From positions 1-64,000 of the forward strand of contig JAEOUE010000209.1 in the NCBI GenBank assembly GCA_016839515.1: a stretch of 64,000 nt of DNA, in the 5' to 3' direction. The stretch is from Candidatus Hodarchaeum mangrovi (GTDB lineage Archaea; Asgardarchaeota; Heimdallarchaeia; Hodarchaeales; Hodarchaeaceae). A program made the translations under genes and the position numbers. The notes under the pieces are model-generated. The model saw only the letters and a program-made list of their open reading frames with translations, ran no database searches and was not told the origin of the DNA. This document shows, in pieces, positions 41,688-46,415 of this stretch (positions are counted from its first letter, which is position 1; each line of letters begins with the position of its first letter).

Positions 41688-42299
41688 ATGAGTTATTCTG
41701 GAGAGTATTTAGTAAAGCTTGCAAGAATAGCAATAGAGACCATTTTAAAAAGTAACAAAGAAACCGTCATTCCAGTTCCAACTGACGCTCCTGAAGATCT
41801 CTTTGATCAATCAGGTGTATTTGTTACTCTTCATAAAATTAAAAATTCCATGCAACATGATCTTCGTGGTTGCATTGGAAGGATAGAGAGCCCAAACAGC
41901 ACTCTTATTCAATCCACTATTAAAAGCGCAATTGATGCAGCTATTAACGATCCTCGATTTCCTGTTGTAACTATGGATGAAATGGGTCAAATAACTATTG
42001 AGGTAACAATTCTTACAGTCCCCGAACTAATCAAAGTTACCAATTCAGATGAATACAAAAATCACATTATAATTGGTAAGCATGGTTTAATTGCCCAGAG
42101 GTCATTATACCAACGCGGTTTATTATTACCACAAGTACCTGTAGAACAAAAATGGGATCTTCTACAATATTTAAATCATGTTTGTTTAAAAGCGGGACTT
42201 CCATCTCATTCTTGGAGGGACATGAAGACCAAAATATATCGGTTTCAAGGATTTATATTTGGTGAAATGTCTCCTAATGGTCCTATTATCATGAAATAA
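41688..42299 (+). CDS. AMMECR1 (AmmeMemoRadiSam protein A)
   Basis: GVFVTL, LRGCIG, DPRF, GLLLPQV, KAGL. Confidence 0.95.
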   Translation: MSYSGEYLVKLARIAIETILKSNKETVIPVPTDAPEDLFDQSGVFVTLHKIKNSMQHDLRGCIGRIESPNSTLIQSTIKSAIDAAINDPRFPVVTMDEMGQITIEVTILTVPELIKVTNSDEYKNHIIIGKHGLIAQRSLYQRGLLLPQVPVEQKWDLLQYLNHVCLKAGLPSHSWRDMKTKIYRFQGFIFGEMSPNGPIIMK

Positions 42300-42313
42300 T
42301 TGGAGTTTAACCA

Positions 42314-43414
42314 TTATTGCTCTAGATAGGAATTGATGTTTATTTCGTACGGTTTATCGTTCGATTTTATTATCTCGATCTTATTCTTGTAGGTACAACA
42401 AGGTAAAGCATCAATTTCTTGAAATAGAGATTTATCTCCAAAATAATGCATTTGAATTGGTCGAATCACGGAAACCTCAAGATTTTTCTCTAAAAAAGTT
42501 AGTGCCTTAAGATTCATTATTTCATTCTTACAATTAAAGCATGTTGGAGATATAATTGTCATAAGGTTTTCTCTGTGCGCAATTTTTTCAGCATATTTTT
42601 CGCAAAAAAATTGACATAGTAAGCAAAGTTCAAATTCTGATTGATTTTCACTTAAGAACTTGGAAATATCTATAAGATATGGATTAGGAAAATATTCTTT
42701 CATAATTAAATGCATATAATCTATATAATTCTCTTTATCAGTTTTGAAGAATAATGGAATGACTTCAACTCCTCGTTTCTTCATCAACCAAGCGGCAAAA
42801 AGTGAACTCGTGTTTGGTCTAATAATTGCCAAAGATTTACCTTGAGATTTGGTAGGAATTCCATCAATTCCTATAATTCGCTTTGTATAATATAATACAA
42901 AATCACCACGAATATCCAAATAAATTTTATAATCAGGATTAGCTAGATCTACTTTAAGGTTAGGGATGTTCGTTTTAATCAATGCTCCTAATTTAGAAGC
43001 AATTTCGAGTGAATTATATGGATGGTTACCTTCCCTATTTACACGTACTGCAAAACTCCCTTCTGCATCAATAATCTCTTTAGAAAATGTTAACCCAAAG
43101 TTTAGGAGGTCCTTTTCATTTGAAGATCCTACAAAAGCGATACTTAAAGAAGAAATTCCGCTGATAGTTTTACTGATCGACTCCGCATATTCATTGATGT
43201 AGGAATCATCATCTAATTCCAATATCAATCGATCTCGATATTCAAAAATCTTAAATCCTTGATTGATACTACTATATTCTTTCAGGGTCTTTTTAAGGTT
43301 TGAAATCATTCGTTTGCGCGTTCGACGACTTTTTATCCCTAATTCTCCCCCTGGACGTATTAAAATTACTTGTTTACTCACTAGAGAAGCTAGACCATTC
43401 ATAGCAAGTGTCAT
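42314..43414 (-). CDS. ThiI-like THUMP-domain protein with degenerate PP-loop
   Basis: GELGIKS-x-x-x-R, FAVR, VDL-x-NPD, G-x-x-G-x-P, AAWLMKKRG; SGGIDS replaced by RPNTSS. Confidence 0.8.
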   Translation of the reverse strand: MTLAMNGLASLVSKQVILIRPGGELGIKSRRTRKRMISNLKKTLKEYSSINQGFKIFEYRDRLILELDDDSYINEYAESISKTISGISSLSIAFVGSSNEKDLLNFGLTFSKEIIDAEGSFAVRVNREGNHPYNSLEIASKLGALIKTNIPNLKVDLANPDYKIYLDIRGDFVLYYTKRIIGIDGIPTKSQGKSLAIIRPNTSSLFAAWLMKKRGVEVIPLFFKTDKENYIDYMHLIMKEYFPNPYLIDISKFLSENQSEFELCLLCQFFCEKYAEKIAHRENLMTIISPTCFNCKNEIMNLKALTFLEKNLEVSVIRPIQMHYFGDKSLFQEIDALPCCTYKNKIEIIKSNDKPYEININSYLEQ

Positions 43415-43748
43415 TCCTGAATTCTTTTCTTGATTTATAATTAAATAATTATTAGTTAATATTGGATTTAAGCGATTTTGACATCTAGTATCTTATATTC
43501 ATTATTTTACTTGGTTAGCTTGTAGGGATAAATAATATTTATTTCACAAATTTAGAACAAATCTTAGTAGCTTTTGAATGTCTTGAGAAGCTTTGTGAAT
43601 AGTAATCATTCAAGTCTTACTTACAAGTATTCAATATCAACCGATTTACTGTTTAAATTGAAAGTAATTGTCCGATTCACTACTGAAACTACTAATCAGG
43701 TAAATTTAAGGATGGAAGCTATAAATTTTTAACAATAAGAGATGAAAA

Positions 43749-43824
43749 TAACGAGCGTGTCAGAGTAACTATAATAATTCATTGAAGAACTCATCCTTGT
43801 CAGGTTTCATCATAACGCCCGTTA
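43749..43824 (-). ncRNA. Dual-guide box C/D sRNA predicted to target 23S rRNA H69 and H71
   Basis: 10-bp terminal stem (one G-U); C box ATGATGA 43807-43813; D' ATGA 43791-43794; D CTGA 43760-43763; guides complementary to CCUUGUCAGGU and AGUAACUAUAA. Confidence 0.88.
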
Positions 43825-43856
43825 TACTATTACTACTAAAAAATTCATTATATCTT

Positions 43857-44273
43857 TTAGGAATCTTCTTCTTCCTCTAATTCCTTTGATGTTTGAATTA
43901 TTTTTGCAACATCAAACCGCTGTTCAAATTTTCTCCAAATTGCATCATGTAATTCTTCATTAATGTTCTTTAAAACCTTCTCAACAACTTTTTTAGCTTT
44001 TTCACGATCAATAGGAAGTTCAGTGAACCCCCACATTGATGCTGGTGCTGCATCAGGATTTTTTTCAATTAGGTAAACAATTCCTTCTTGCTGTTGGAAT
44101 GAAATGTATTTTGGTTGAACAAGAGGACAATCAGTTAATGTATGAACACCAGTAACTGTAAATAAATGATTGCATCTAATTTTGTTTCCACTGGAGGAGG
44201 ATTTAAATGCACAATGACCTTTATCTAAATAATTCCAAGAAGTGGTTAGATTTGAATCTTTCATGGTTTTCAT
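43857..44273 (-). CDS. Mak16/eL28-family protein (ORF-track 5' extension overlaps the tRNA and is spurious)
   Basis: W...HCAFK...C...VTG-x-H...CPL...Y...G-x-x-YL-x-x-K...W...L pattern of eukaryotic Mak16; acidic tail. Confidence 0.8.
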   Translation of the reverse strand: MKTMKDSNLTTSWNYLDKGHCAFKSSSSGNKIRCNHLFTVTGVHTLTDCPLVQPKYISFQQQEGIVYLIEKNPDAAPASMWGFTELPIDREKAKKVVEKVLKNINEELHDAIWRKFEQRFDVAKIIQTSKELEEEEDS

Positions 44274-44301
44274 CTCTTTTTTCCTATATTCAAGACTAAT
44301 A

Positions 44302-44403
44302 AGCCGCTGGGGGGACTTGAACCCCCGACCAACAGATCTCAAGGATATAAGAGAATATTAATATCTTACAAGTCTGTCGCTCTACCAACTAAGCCACAGC
44401 GGC
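44302..44403 (-). tRNA. tRNA-Thr(TGT) with 29-nt intron at 37/38 (44338-44366)
   Basis: GCCGCTG/CAGCGGC acceptor, U73, ACAGA/TCTGT anticodon stem, GGGGG-TTCAAGT-CCCCC T arm. Confidence 0.95.
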
Positions 44404-44667
44404 AATAAATCTTATATATCTCAACTGAAAACTTTTATAAATTTATTTCGACCTCTGAATATGTACAAAGAACCTTTTACATGATTTTAATTTGTCCTTT
44501 AGACTCAAAATAATAGAACATTGGTCTATTAGACAAAAAAGCATGTTTTGCTTCTAATATTCCCGATTTTAGATGAATTTAAATTTGTTTCATTCAATTT
44601 GATTAATTATTTATCATCCTTAAAGATGGGAATTATTCGATTTTGATTCAATATCATTATCTATTAC

Positions 44668-45096
44668 TCAACGAAGCTCTAATATGCGTTTATTTCGGAT
44701 ATAAAGGGTTTTAATCTGTTTATTTCTAGCCATCTTCTTCAAACGATTATCATTAGTGGCAATAATCCCATTTTCTTTTTCAGAATTGAATAATAAAATG
44801 AAATCAACGTTTCGATGCTTGAAAGGAGATGAACGTATTATACAATACTTTTCTACAAAATCCAAGGCTAATTTTGCTTCAATTTTTGTTTTTGGATTCC
44901 CAGTTTCGTAAAGCTTCTGAATTTCTTGAAAAATTGGCTCTAATACTATTAATTGTCTTGATCTAGGAATAACTCTATCTAATTCAGATGATATATTAAA
45001 ATTTGTAAACTGTCCTAATGCCATTAAGAAATTAGTATCAAGAAATATAGGAAGGAAATTTTCTCCATTTGAGGAATTTATTAATTCATCCGTAAT
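44668..45096 (-). CDS. PIN-domain nuclease, Fcf1/Utp24-like; start must lie upstream of the ORF-track ATG
   Basis: In-frame IFLDTNFL upstream of the ATG at 45024; VD and IATND motifs; follows eIF2-gamma as is typical in archaea. Confidence 0.85.
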   Translation of the reverse strand: MTDELINSSNGENFLPIFLDTNFLMALGQFTNFNISSELDRVIPRSRQLIVLEPIFQEIQKLYETGNPKTKIEAKLALDFVEKYCIIRSSPFKHRNVDFILLFNSEKENGIIATNDNRLKKMARNKQIKTLYIRNKRILELR

Positions 45097-46415
45097 TCCT
45101 TGCCTCCATTAATTAATCCCCAACCGATTAATCGCCATCGTCTATCTATCATTCGACTTATGGCAATTCTTGTGCCTAAATCCGAGCAAACTGGTATACG
45201 CAGTTCGATATGTACACCTTTTTTAGATGACTTTATGACTTTCCCAACCGTTTTTGCCGTTCCTACACTTAACATTAAATTTTCATTAGGTTCTATGTTT
45301 TGAACTATGGACTGTGTCTCGCTTCCTACTACACGCTCCATTAATGTTGCATTAAATTCGAGTGTATCCCATATTGGAGGAAGCTGATCTGGATATCCTA
45401 CCACTTGTCCAACCAAGGTATCACTCTTAGTTAGAGCTGGATCTAAAAGTGTTCCAAGTCCAATTAATCCTCCAGGTAGTGCTGTTTCTAATTCTCCAAA
45501 TCCACTCCTTAAGCTGGTAATTTTCGTTTTAATTAATTGCCATTTGTTTCCCCTTCGATACCCAGGACGAATCTCAACCTCATCATTAACAGAAAATTTA
45601 CCTTGGATTATACTTCCTCCGACAACACCACCTTTCAATCCACTTGGAGCTTGACCAGGTTTATTTATATCAAAAGAGCGTGCTACAAGCATCTGAGGTG
45701 CTAATGATCCATCTCGCTTAGGAGTAGGAATTTTCTCTTGGATGTTTTGAATTAGTAGATCAATATTTGATTTATGGATCGCACTAATCGGAATGATTGG
45801 ACTTTCTTTGGCAGAGGTATTTGAAATAAATGTCTTAAGATCTTTATAATTTATTAGAGCATCTTTTTCAGAAACAAGTTCAATCTTGTTCTGACAGACT
45901 ATTACATTTTCCATTCCAATGATGTCCATTGCAGCTAGATGTTCTCGGGTTTGAGGCATTGGAACCCTTTCATTTGCAGCAACTACAAGAAGAGCCCCAT
46001 CCATGATGCTTGCTCCCGATAACATGGTTGCCATTAGAACTTCATGGCCTGGTGCATCAACAAAAGCTACTCTTCGTAATAAAATTGTTTCTTTGCCACA
46101 TACTGGACAAATCTTTGCTGTTGAATACTTTTGCGGACTTTCACAATTTGGACATTCTCGAAATTCACACTCAGCGTAACCAAGGCGAATTGAAATTCCA
46201 CGACGAATTTCTTCACTGTGAGTATCGGGGAACTTTCCTGTTAAAGCTTGAGTCAGTGTTGATTTTCCATGATCAACATGTCCTATCATACCTATAGAAA
46301 CTTCTGCTTGATTAACAACAAGTTTTTCCGAATCTTTTTCAGCTTTATCAGCACTAATGGATTCAGTTGTAGCTGTTTTCTTCTTAGCTGTTGATCGCTT
46401 TTTTCTAGCTGGCAT
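45081..46415 (-). CDS. eif2g: Translation initiation factor 2 gamma subunit
   Basis: GHVDHGKST, RGISIRLGY, Zn knuckle, DAPGHE, QNKIE, WRLIG. Confidence 0.97.
   Translation of the reverse strand: MPARKKRSTAKKKTATTESISADKAEKDSEKLVVNQAEVSIGMIGHVDHGKSTLTQALTGKFPDTHSEEIRRGISIRLGYAECEFRECPNCESPQKYSTAKICPVCGKETILLRRVAFVDAPGHEVLMATMLSGASIMDGALLVVAANERVPMPQTREHLAAMDIIGMENVIVCQNKIELVSEKDALINYKDLKTFISNTSAKESPIIPISAIHKSNIDLLIQNIQEKIPTPKRDGSLAPQMLVARSFDINKPGQAPSGLKGGVVGGSIIQGKFSVNDEVEIRPGYRRGNKWQLIKTKITSLRSGFGELETALPGGLIGLGTLLDPALTKSDTLVGQVVGYPDQLPPIWDTLEFNATLMERVVGSETQSIVQNIEPNENLMLSVGTAKTVGKVIKSSKKGVHIELRIPVCSDLGTRIAISRMIDRRWRLIGWGLINGGKELRMN

Follow-up and report, generated by a model that had tools for sequence, protein, structure and literature searches.

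A probable dual-guide box C/D small RNA of a Hodarchaeales archaeon with predicted targets in helices 69 and 71 of 23S rRNA

The closest described guides and the Hodarchaeales RNA

In the hyperthermophilic crenarchaeon Ignicoccus hospitalis, the box C/D small RNA (sRNA) sR91, identified by RNA-seq, is listed with two predicted 23S rRNA targets, A2179 for its D guide and G2211 for its D' guide (PMC4644070, supplementary file 1). In the numbering of that source A2178 corresponds to Escherichia coli A1912, so that the two listed targets are the equivalents of E. coli A1913, in the loop of helix 69 (H69), and G1945, in helix 71 (H71). Here we describe an RNA with the same pair of predicted targets from Candidatus Hodarchaeum mangrovi, encoded on the minus strand of a stretch of 64,000 nucleotides (nt) that was analysed as a whole and is called the window below (assembly GCA_016839515.1, contig JAEOUE010000209.1, positions 1 to 64,000). 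With a probability that we put at roughly 0.8, it is a real dual-guide box C/D sRNA of a Hodarchaeales archaeon, which would be transcribed, assemble into a particle and direct 2'-O-methylation at the equivalents of A1913 and G1945. This reading is carried by the box architecture, the conservation of the RNA, covariation in its terminal stem, the complementarity and covariation of its guides with 23S rRNA, and three protein genes.

Several other archaeal guides in the supplementary list of PMC4644070 share one of these targets. G2211 is also given as the D' target of Thermoproteus tenax sR30 and of sR54, which by its column is taken to belong to Pyrobaculum calidifontis, and Sulfolobus acidocaldarius sR113 shares the D guide alone, its D target being printed as 'A21779', probably for A2179, and its D' guide being listed without a predicted target (PMC4644070). 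Ignicoccus sR109 and Sulfolobus sR125 were considered as guides to the same sites and set aside, their listed targets A2204 and G2172 being neighbouring sites (PMC4644070). Helices 68, 69 and 71 are described as methylation hotspots of archaeal rRNA (Dennis et al. 2015, PMC4644070; Breuer et al. 2021, PMC7994747), and archaeal dual guides are said to target sites that usually lie less than 100 nt apart (PMC7994747), with nearby sites also named in PMC4644070. A literature search, which was not exhaustive, found no catalogue of Asgard C/D sRNAs, and no measured archaeal methylation at these two sites was found in the literature examined, where PMC7758197 refers elsewhere for its RiboMeth-seq site list.

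Read 5' to 3' on the minus strand from 43824 to 43749, the window RNA is TAACGGGCGT-T-ATGATGA-AACCTGACAAGG-ATGA-GTTCTTCA-ATGAATT-ATTATAGTTACT-CTGA-C-ACGCTCGTTA. The boxes, stem arms and two 12-nt guides are exactly those given in the first-pass annotation, an earlier reading of the letters of the window. The parts are as follows, with conservation counted over 22 aligned copies from the genus.

43749..43824, minus strand: box C/D sRNA gene of 76 nt, its ends set by the terminal stem (from sequence, covariance model and conservation)
43815..43824, minus strand: 5' arm of the terminal stem, TAACGGGCGT, pairing with 43749-43758
43807..43813, minus strand: box C, ATGATGA, equal to RUGAUGA; TGATGA is invariant in 22/22 copies
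43795..43806, minus strand: D' guide, AACCTGACAAGG, 12 nt; predicted target the G of CCUUGUC in H71 (E. coli G1945)
43791..43794, minus strand: D' box, ATGA, a degenerate CUGA; (A/T)TGA in 20/22 copies
43783..43790, minus strand: linker between D' and C', GTTCTTCA, 8 nt (from sequence)
43776..43782, minus strand: C' box, ATGAATT, degenerate; ATGA is invariant
43764..43775, minus strand: D guide, ATTATAGTTACT, 12 nt; predicted target the second A of GUAAC in the H69 loop (E. coli A1913)
43760..43763, minus strand: box D, CTGA, invariant in 22/22 copies
43749..43758, minus strand: 3' arm of the terminal stem, ACGCTCGTTA, pairing with 43815-43824

The spacers from C to D' and from C' to D both measure 12 nt, and they do so in all 22 copies. 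The two inner boxes are correctly placed and both off consensus, with their GA dinucleotides kept in 20/22 copies. The linker between them reads GCnnnGC in most genus copies, which gives a closing stem of 2 base pairs (bp) that is 98% paired; the window copy retains the outer G-C pair alone. The terminal stem consists of 10 bp, including one G-U, and is retained at the end of the minimum free energy fold (-17.4 kcal/mol, z = -1.99; 10 of 200 shuffled sequences were equally stable). The sRNA lies in a gap of 442 bases separating two minus-strand genes and overlaps no listed open reading frame (ORF) of at least 40 amino acids. At gathering thresholds, Rfam reported only a tRNA in the whole window and no sRNA family.

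The resemblance to Ignicoccus sR91, as listed in PMC4644070, extends to the architecture, both predicted targets, the order of the guides and their register, the D guide of sR91 ending in AGTTACG before CTGA and its D' guide in GGCAAGC before CCGA. On the other hand, sR91 belongs to a hyperthermophilic crenarchaeon, is 69 nt long as listed and carries guides that fit its own rRNA variants, with targets that are likewise predictions (PMC4644070); outside the boxes and guides no sequence homology between the two RNAs is demonstrable. The 12-nt guides, a predicted kink-turn combined with a putative kink-loop, and predicted targets less than 100 nt from each other are points of likeness to archaeal dual guides in general, such as the Pyrococcus sR RNAs, the Pyrobaculum families and Methanocaldococcus jannaschii sR8. 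Compared with these, the genus has a longer terminal stem, which is also its most variable part, and more degenerate C' and D' boxes. Measured alike, the predicted end stem has a median of 11 pairs and -12.9 kcal/mol in the genus versus 7 pairs and -5.8 kcal/mol in other lineages, with a median box-to-box core of 54 and 52 nt, respectively. The end stem thus sets the genus apart, although a long stem is not foreign to archaea, sR8 having an 8-bp stem end (PMC5062973). Of the long terminal stem that had been likened to those of small nucleolar RNAs (snoRNAs), the length holds and the stem covaries, while the likeness to snoRNAs adds little because of sR8.

Pairing with 23S rRNA, covariation and spread

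Each guide of the window RNA forms 11 contiguous pairs with the 23S rRNA of congeners, the D guide with AGTAACTATAA and the D' guide with CCTTGTCAGGT, and the sole mismatch of each duplex is the guide base adjoining the C or C' box. The next-best complementary runs in the 23S or 16S rRNA of the genus were of 7 and 6, and a run of 11 was reached by 3/2000 shuffled versions of the D' guide and by 0/2000 of the D guide. Following the rule that the base opposite the fifth guide base upstream of the box is modified (N+5), the predicted targets are A1913 in the H69 loop and G1945 in H71, 32 nt apart. In the rrlH gene of E. coli K-12 the second A of GTAAC is position 1913 and the G of CCTTGTC position 1945, and the genus 23S is collinear with it and gapless. 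These results bear out the two targets proposed in the first-pass annotation, its placing of the H69 and H71 motifs about 30 nt apart and, for the 23S of congeners, its expectation of 9-10 nt of complementarity. The D' duplex includes AGG where E. coli has GGG; other archaeal lineages differ here too, so that the D' match is lineage-specific.

The 23S target region was taken from three genomes of the genus (G005, G016 and contig C38 of G001), which are identical across the region shown. The assembly to which the window belongs (348 contigs, 4.0 Mb, 33% G+C, 91% complete, 6% contamination) yielded no archaeal 23S or 16S in searches for large-subunit (LSU) and small-subunit rRNA, so the earlier remark that the rRNA of the organism lies outside the window holds for its whole assembly. 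The only LSU sequence of this assembly, on contig C310 (L001, 1-859 and 995-1109) was rejected as the organism's own; it is a 3' piece of a bacterial 23S (841 bits with the bacterial model) with a 5S rRNA, and is most likely a contaminant. A full-length archaeal 23S in G001 (L029, G001:C57:307-3242, 2781 bits) departs from the genus type in H69 and H71; it was left unused and taken as a probably foreign contig, since G001 also has the genus-type 23S on C38.

A covariance model of the RNA, R1, which matched the window copy with 94.3 bits (G000:C153:43747-43826), was searched against 83 genomes of the class. The matches, by family, were as follows.

f1, the family of the genus itself: 21/21 genomes
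f2, of the same order: 2/2 genomes
f3: 2/31 genomes
f4: 9/12 genomes
f5: 0/12 genomes
f6: 0/1 genome
f7: 0/3 genomes

On inspection the matches in f2 and f4 are genuine, with the order of boxes and guides unchanged; in the f4 homologues D' and C' are separated by a hairpin of some 30 nt, and the end stem has 6 bp. The two f3 matches (G024, G064) are without proper boxes or guides and were judged false; G021 gave a second, weak match on C12. The guides of these relatives change together with the rRNA that they face. Opposite H71, the D' guide ACCTGACAAG of f1 faces CTTGTCAGGT, that of G082 and G031 is ATCTGACAAG and faces CTTGTCAGAT, and that of G033 is ATCCGACAAG and faces CTTGTCGGAT, the duplex being perfect over 10 bp in 6/7 genome pairs. 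Opposite H69, the D guide TTATAGTTAC of f1 faces GTAACTATAA and the D guide TCATAGTTAC of f4 faces GTAACTATGA in its own rRNA, with a match in 7/7 genome pairs. This co-change of guide and rRNA is the strongest argument for both arms being read against the rRNA.

Within the genus, the RNA stands out sharply from its surroundings. When 181 bases around it were searched by blastn, each of the 21/21 other genus genomes gave one match, confined to the sRNA, which is the sole conserved part of the intergenic spacer in all of them, the flanks not being conserved. In the alignment of 22 copies, TGATGA, positions 2-11 of the D' guide, positions 1-11 of the D guide and CTGA are invariant; within the D guide, TTATAGTTACT is the same in 22/22 copies. 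Variation is found in the stem arms, at position 1 of the D' guide and at position 12 of the D guide, the last two being guide bases that are expected to remain unpaired.

Covariation of the stem was assessed in 25 sequences, 24 of them distinct, including two f2 copies and one from a Loki-type archaeon, fitted to the covariance model. All ten pairs (10/10) show two-sided changes across the 24 distinct sequences, 74% of the stem cells are paired versus 35-43% when the partner strand is slid, and the covariation score was reached by 0/500 shuffles. An alignment fitted to a model leans toward structure; the slid controls speak against such an artefact.

The family is not restricted to the genus. 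A pattern built from the window RNA found 19 stretches in a collection with one genome per species, and 19/19 lie in metagenome-assembled genomes (MAGs) labelled Heimdallarchaeota, Hodarchaeota, Hermodarchaeota, Promethearchaeota or uncultured archaeon. A two-guide pattern (TGATGA, a guide ending in GRCAAGN, a D' box, a C' box, a guide ending in AGTTACN, and CTGA) found 48 stretches in this register in the same kind of collection, distributed as follows.

Hodarchaeales genus: 19 of 48
Loki-type MAGs: 3 of 48, two of them on contigs of one MAG
Baldrarchaeum: 1 of 48
Desulfurococcales, Ignisphaera, Sulfolobales (Acidianus, Stygiolobus) and other Thermoproteota-type: 24 of 48, two labelled Nitrososphaerota
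Myxobacterial: 1 of 48, a chance match

All but the myxobacterial match, 47 of 48, agree in register with the window RNA and with Ignicoccus sR91. The full architecture was present in 27 of 28 inspected pattern matches, and outside the genus the D' box is well formed (CTGA, for example) and the register unchanged. One gammaproteobacterial and one myxobacterial match are unrelated sequence and were taken as chance. A pattern that proved too strict, scanned across the phylum, matched 22/400 genomes, a figure that gives no estimate of spread because this pattern misses f4, in which the D' box comes one base earlier. The presence of the two-guide layout in Thermoproteota-type, Loki-type and Baldr archaea points to an old family, widespread in the TACK (Thaumarchaeota, Aigarchaeota, Crenarchaeota and Korarchaeota) and Asgard archaea. 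The search for Asgard homologues suggested by the first-pass annotation has thus returned the RNA from every other genome of the genus, f2, f4, Loki-type MAGs and Baldrarchaeum. The window RNA is the Hodarchaeales member of an H69/H71 dual-guide family, and such a dual guide is not special to Asgard archaea.

Two further observations concern the 23S rRNA of these organisms. In f4, an interruption of about 850-1000 bases separates H69 from H71 in the 23S genes of L127 (G037:C98) and L128 (G031:C99), close to E. coli positions 1923-1925, and the same is seen in f7 (L133, G067:C293; G068; G069). The interruption is probably an rRNA intron; the sRNA guides pair on either side of it, with exon 1 and exon 2. 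The 23S of the window's genus has no insertion between H69 and H71. Besides, many genus genomes contain isolated copies, two in some of them, of about 300 nt from the 3' end of 23S (model positions 2721-2973), for example L023 (G010:C12:515019-515329), L024, L025 (G007:C8), L032-L035, L039 and L043; no further rRNA lies within 10 kb of them, and the assembly of the window contains no such copy. They may be pseudo-copies or a separately encoded 3' domain, among other possibilities.

Genomic context and alternative explanations

The assembly encodes the three proteins of an archaeal C/D ribonucleoprotein (sRNP). Genes for fibrillarin (PF01269, 259.6 bits) and Nop5 (PF01798, 225.3 bits) are neighbours on contig C195, and the L7Ae family is represented by two genes (PF01248, 93.9 and 55.6 bits). 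Following the established mechanism of such particles, L7Ae would bind the kink-turn of boxes C and D beside the 10-bp terminal stem, and also the kink-loop of the degenerate C' and D' boxes, and a Nop5 dimer with two fibrillarins would complete the particle. Each 12-nt guide would form about 10 bp with nascent 23S rRNA, and fibrillarin would methylate the 2'-OH of the rRNA base that faces the fifth guide nucleotide, counted upstream from D or D'. The predicted products are Am at the A1913 equivalent in the H69 loop, from the D guide, and, 32 nt further downstream, Gm at the H71 equivalent of G1945, from the D' guide. The two predicted sites lie in the subunit-interface region, a known archaeal methylation hotspot, and simultaneous binding of the two may aid the folding of this region.

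The genes on the minus strand around the sRNA follow the order eIF2-gamma, PIN-domain protein, tRNA, L28e/Mak16-type, sRNA, THUMP/ThiI-type. The neighbouring features are as follows.

44302-44403, minus strand: tRNA (Rfam, 102 nt, 62.6 bits)
43857..44342, minus strand: L28e/Mak16-type gene, upstream (PF01778 Ribosomal_L28e, 43 bits, cut-off 33.2)
43847..43853, minus strand: ATATAAT, an A/T-rich TATA-like heptamer with its centre some 26 nt before the stem; at most a candidate promoter
43745..43748, minus strand: oligo-T run just 3' of the stem, a candidate archaeal termination signal
42314..43414, minus strand: THUMP/ThiI-type gene, downstream (PF02926, PF22025, PF02568)

The stop codon of the L28e/Mak16-type gene lies 33 nt before the sRNA. 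Its protein has an acidic tail at its end, and PF01778 is the eukaryote-type L28e/Mak16 fold. The TTG listed as the start of this ORF, at 44342, falls within the tRNA, and the true start probably lies further downstream. L28e-type gene, sRNA and ThiI-type gene follow one another in 21/21 genus loci and not in f4; in family f2, G023 likewise has the ThiI-type gene downstream of its sRNA. A T-run directly beyond the 3' arm is likewise found in most genus copies. Instead of having its own promoter, the sRNA may be processed out of the upstream gene's transcript; the sigma-70 promoter scan used a bacterial consensus and is uninformative for an archaeon. The f4 homologues (L089-L095, L126, L129) share a motif, GGAAAnATTTTTGA, about 25-40 nt upstream of the sRNA, which may be a B recognition element (BRE)/TATA promoter. 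Unlike Rfam, ARAGORN reported no tRNA in 42000-46000. Many DNA contigs from other organisms match 44301-44330 and 44363-44403 but not the bases between, and this gap within the tRNA fits an intron of about 32 nt.

Several observations weigh against the reading as a dual methylation guide. The C' and D' boxes (ATGAATT, ATGA) are degenerate, and in two of the 22 genus copies (G001, G016) the D' box is absent at its usual place, which reads GAAA, with the guide retained. The D' spacer of f4 lacks one base, and the strict N+5 rule there gives the neighbouring U; the exception among the D' duplexes, G037, has one distal C.A mismatch. For these reasons the predicted methylation in H71 is less secure than that in H69. 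The organism's own 23S is not assembled, and the pairing rests on three congeners. No clearly conserved promoter, including a counterpart of ATATAAT, was seen among the genus copies. A search for RNA runs containing the locus returned none, and two metatranscriptome runs (contigs) of the study whose DNA contains the locus gave no coverage, a result that is uninformative either way. Rfam at a permissive threshold (E up to 10) gave no family at its gathering score, the best being plant snoR24 with 20.2 versus 38 bits.

The non-consensus D' and C' boxes, the loss of D' in 2/22 copies that keep the guide and the shifted f4 register would also suit a real C/D sRNP in which the D guide alone methylates, at A1913, and the D' arm is an accessory or chaperone contact holding H69-H71 during folding, and chaperone or bridging roles for dual guides have been proposed (PMC7994747). 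We consider this unlikely. UGA in D' and ATGA in C' persist in 20/22 copies and the 12-nt spacing is kept, the homologues of other lineages combine good D' boxes (CTGA) with an unchanged register, and the covariation between the D' guide and its target is as tight as would be expected of a methylation guide. The position of the sRNA raises another explanation, namely a cis-acting element in the 3' untranslated region of the L28e/Mak16-type mRNA, for example a regulatory L7Ae-binding kink-turn, in place of a guide acting in trans. It would account for the 33-nt distance from the stop codon, an arrangement found in 21/21 genus loci, and for the lack of a clearly conserved own promoter, and binding of archaeal L7Ae to mRNAs has been reported (PMC5539422). 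The f4, Loki-type and Thermoproteota homologues stand in other gene contexts, and such an element would leave two stretches of 10-11 nt complementary to rRNA and their covariation with it unexplained, which makes it very improbable.

Chance resemblance or a decaying pseudogene has in its favour that words such as ATGA and CTGA are common in a genome of 33% G+C and that an exact 12-mer complementary to the D guide occurs once more, inside contig C10. Conservation in 21/21 genomes between unconserved flanks, the covariation of the stem, the guide shuffle controls and homologues across two archaeal phyla speak against it so clearly that, as far as sequence evidence goes, it is already refuted, and we give it almost no weight. 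A dual-guide C/D sRNA remains our preferred explanation.

Relation to eukaryotic snoRNAs and significance of the family

The first-pass annotation had set the two predicted targets beside yeast Am2256 and Gm2288. By way of a numbering offset we take these to be the same rRNA bases as A1913 and G1945, and the human counterparts of the yeast guides snR63 and snR75 are presumably SNORD46 and SNORD15. In yeast 25S rRNA each site has its own snoRNA, snR63 guiding Am2256 and snR75 guiding Gm2288 (Sloan et al. 2016, PMC5699541), so that the sites and their guides are as the annotation gave them. Yeast and E. coli numbering differ by a constant 343, in agreement with the H69 pair A2252-U2264 (PMC5699541). 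The yeast snoRNAs resemble the window RNA in working with an enzyme of the fibrillarin/Nop1 family and, by the offset, in addressing the same two bases. The earlier proposal that one Asgard guide covers two sites served by separate eukaryotic snoRNAs stands in so far as the RNA is a dual guide and Asgard; the arrangement is not an Asgard feature, as Ignicoccus sR91 and the 24 Thermoproteota-type records indicate.

A SNORD46 match in Rfam stayed below threshold (12.7 bits versus a gathering score of 40, E 2.6) and covered the D guide and box D only, and neither SNORD15 nor snR75 gave a match at E up to 10. A match over the D guide and box D is expected from the shared target alone and is therefore not evidence of descent. 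No significant sequence similarity links the window RNA to these snoRNAs, every Rfam match lying below its gathering score. Common descent with the yeast snoRNAs is not demonstrable, because about 10 nt are constrained by the shared target.

A more far-reaching idea would be that the H69/H71 dual guide is one ancient gene which existed before Thermoproteota and Asgard archaea diverged, came down to the archaeal ancestor of eukaryotes and was split there into the snR63/SNORD46 and snR75/SNORD15 lines. We regard this as doubtful, and such a forerunner cannot be shown from sequence. If true, the guide would be one of a very small number of guide RNAs that can be followed from archaea to eukaryotes, and the Hodarchaeales form, with its long stem and its place behind an L28e/Mak16-type gene, would be the closest living archaeal version.

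As a single locus the window RNA is ordinary, since its predicted targets fall in helices 68-71, a recognised hotspot, and had been listed as a pair for Ignicoccus before. For the Hodarchaeales, an Asgard group often placed nearest to eukaryotes, it is a further guide RNA, well supported and so far unannotated. Overall, one two-armed H69/H71 guide is kept across Thermoproteota and several Asgard classes, tracking small rRNA changes in each lineage. Because the same two bases are methylated in yeast under the direction of separate snoRNAs, the family offers a concrete test case for snoRNA descent, and poses the question of whether individual eukaryotic snoRNAs come from archaeal ones or have arisen again because these sites need methylation.

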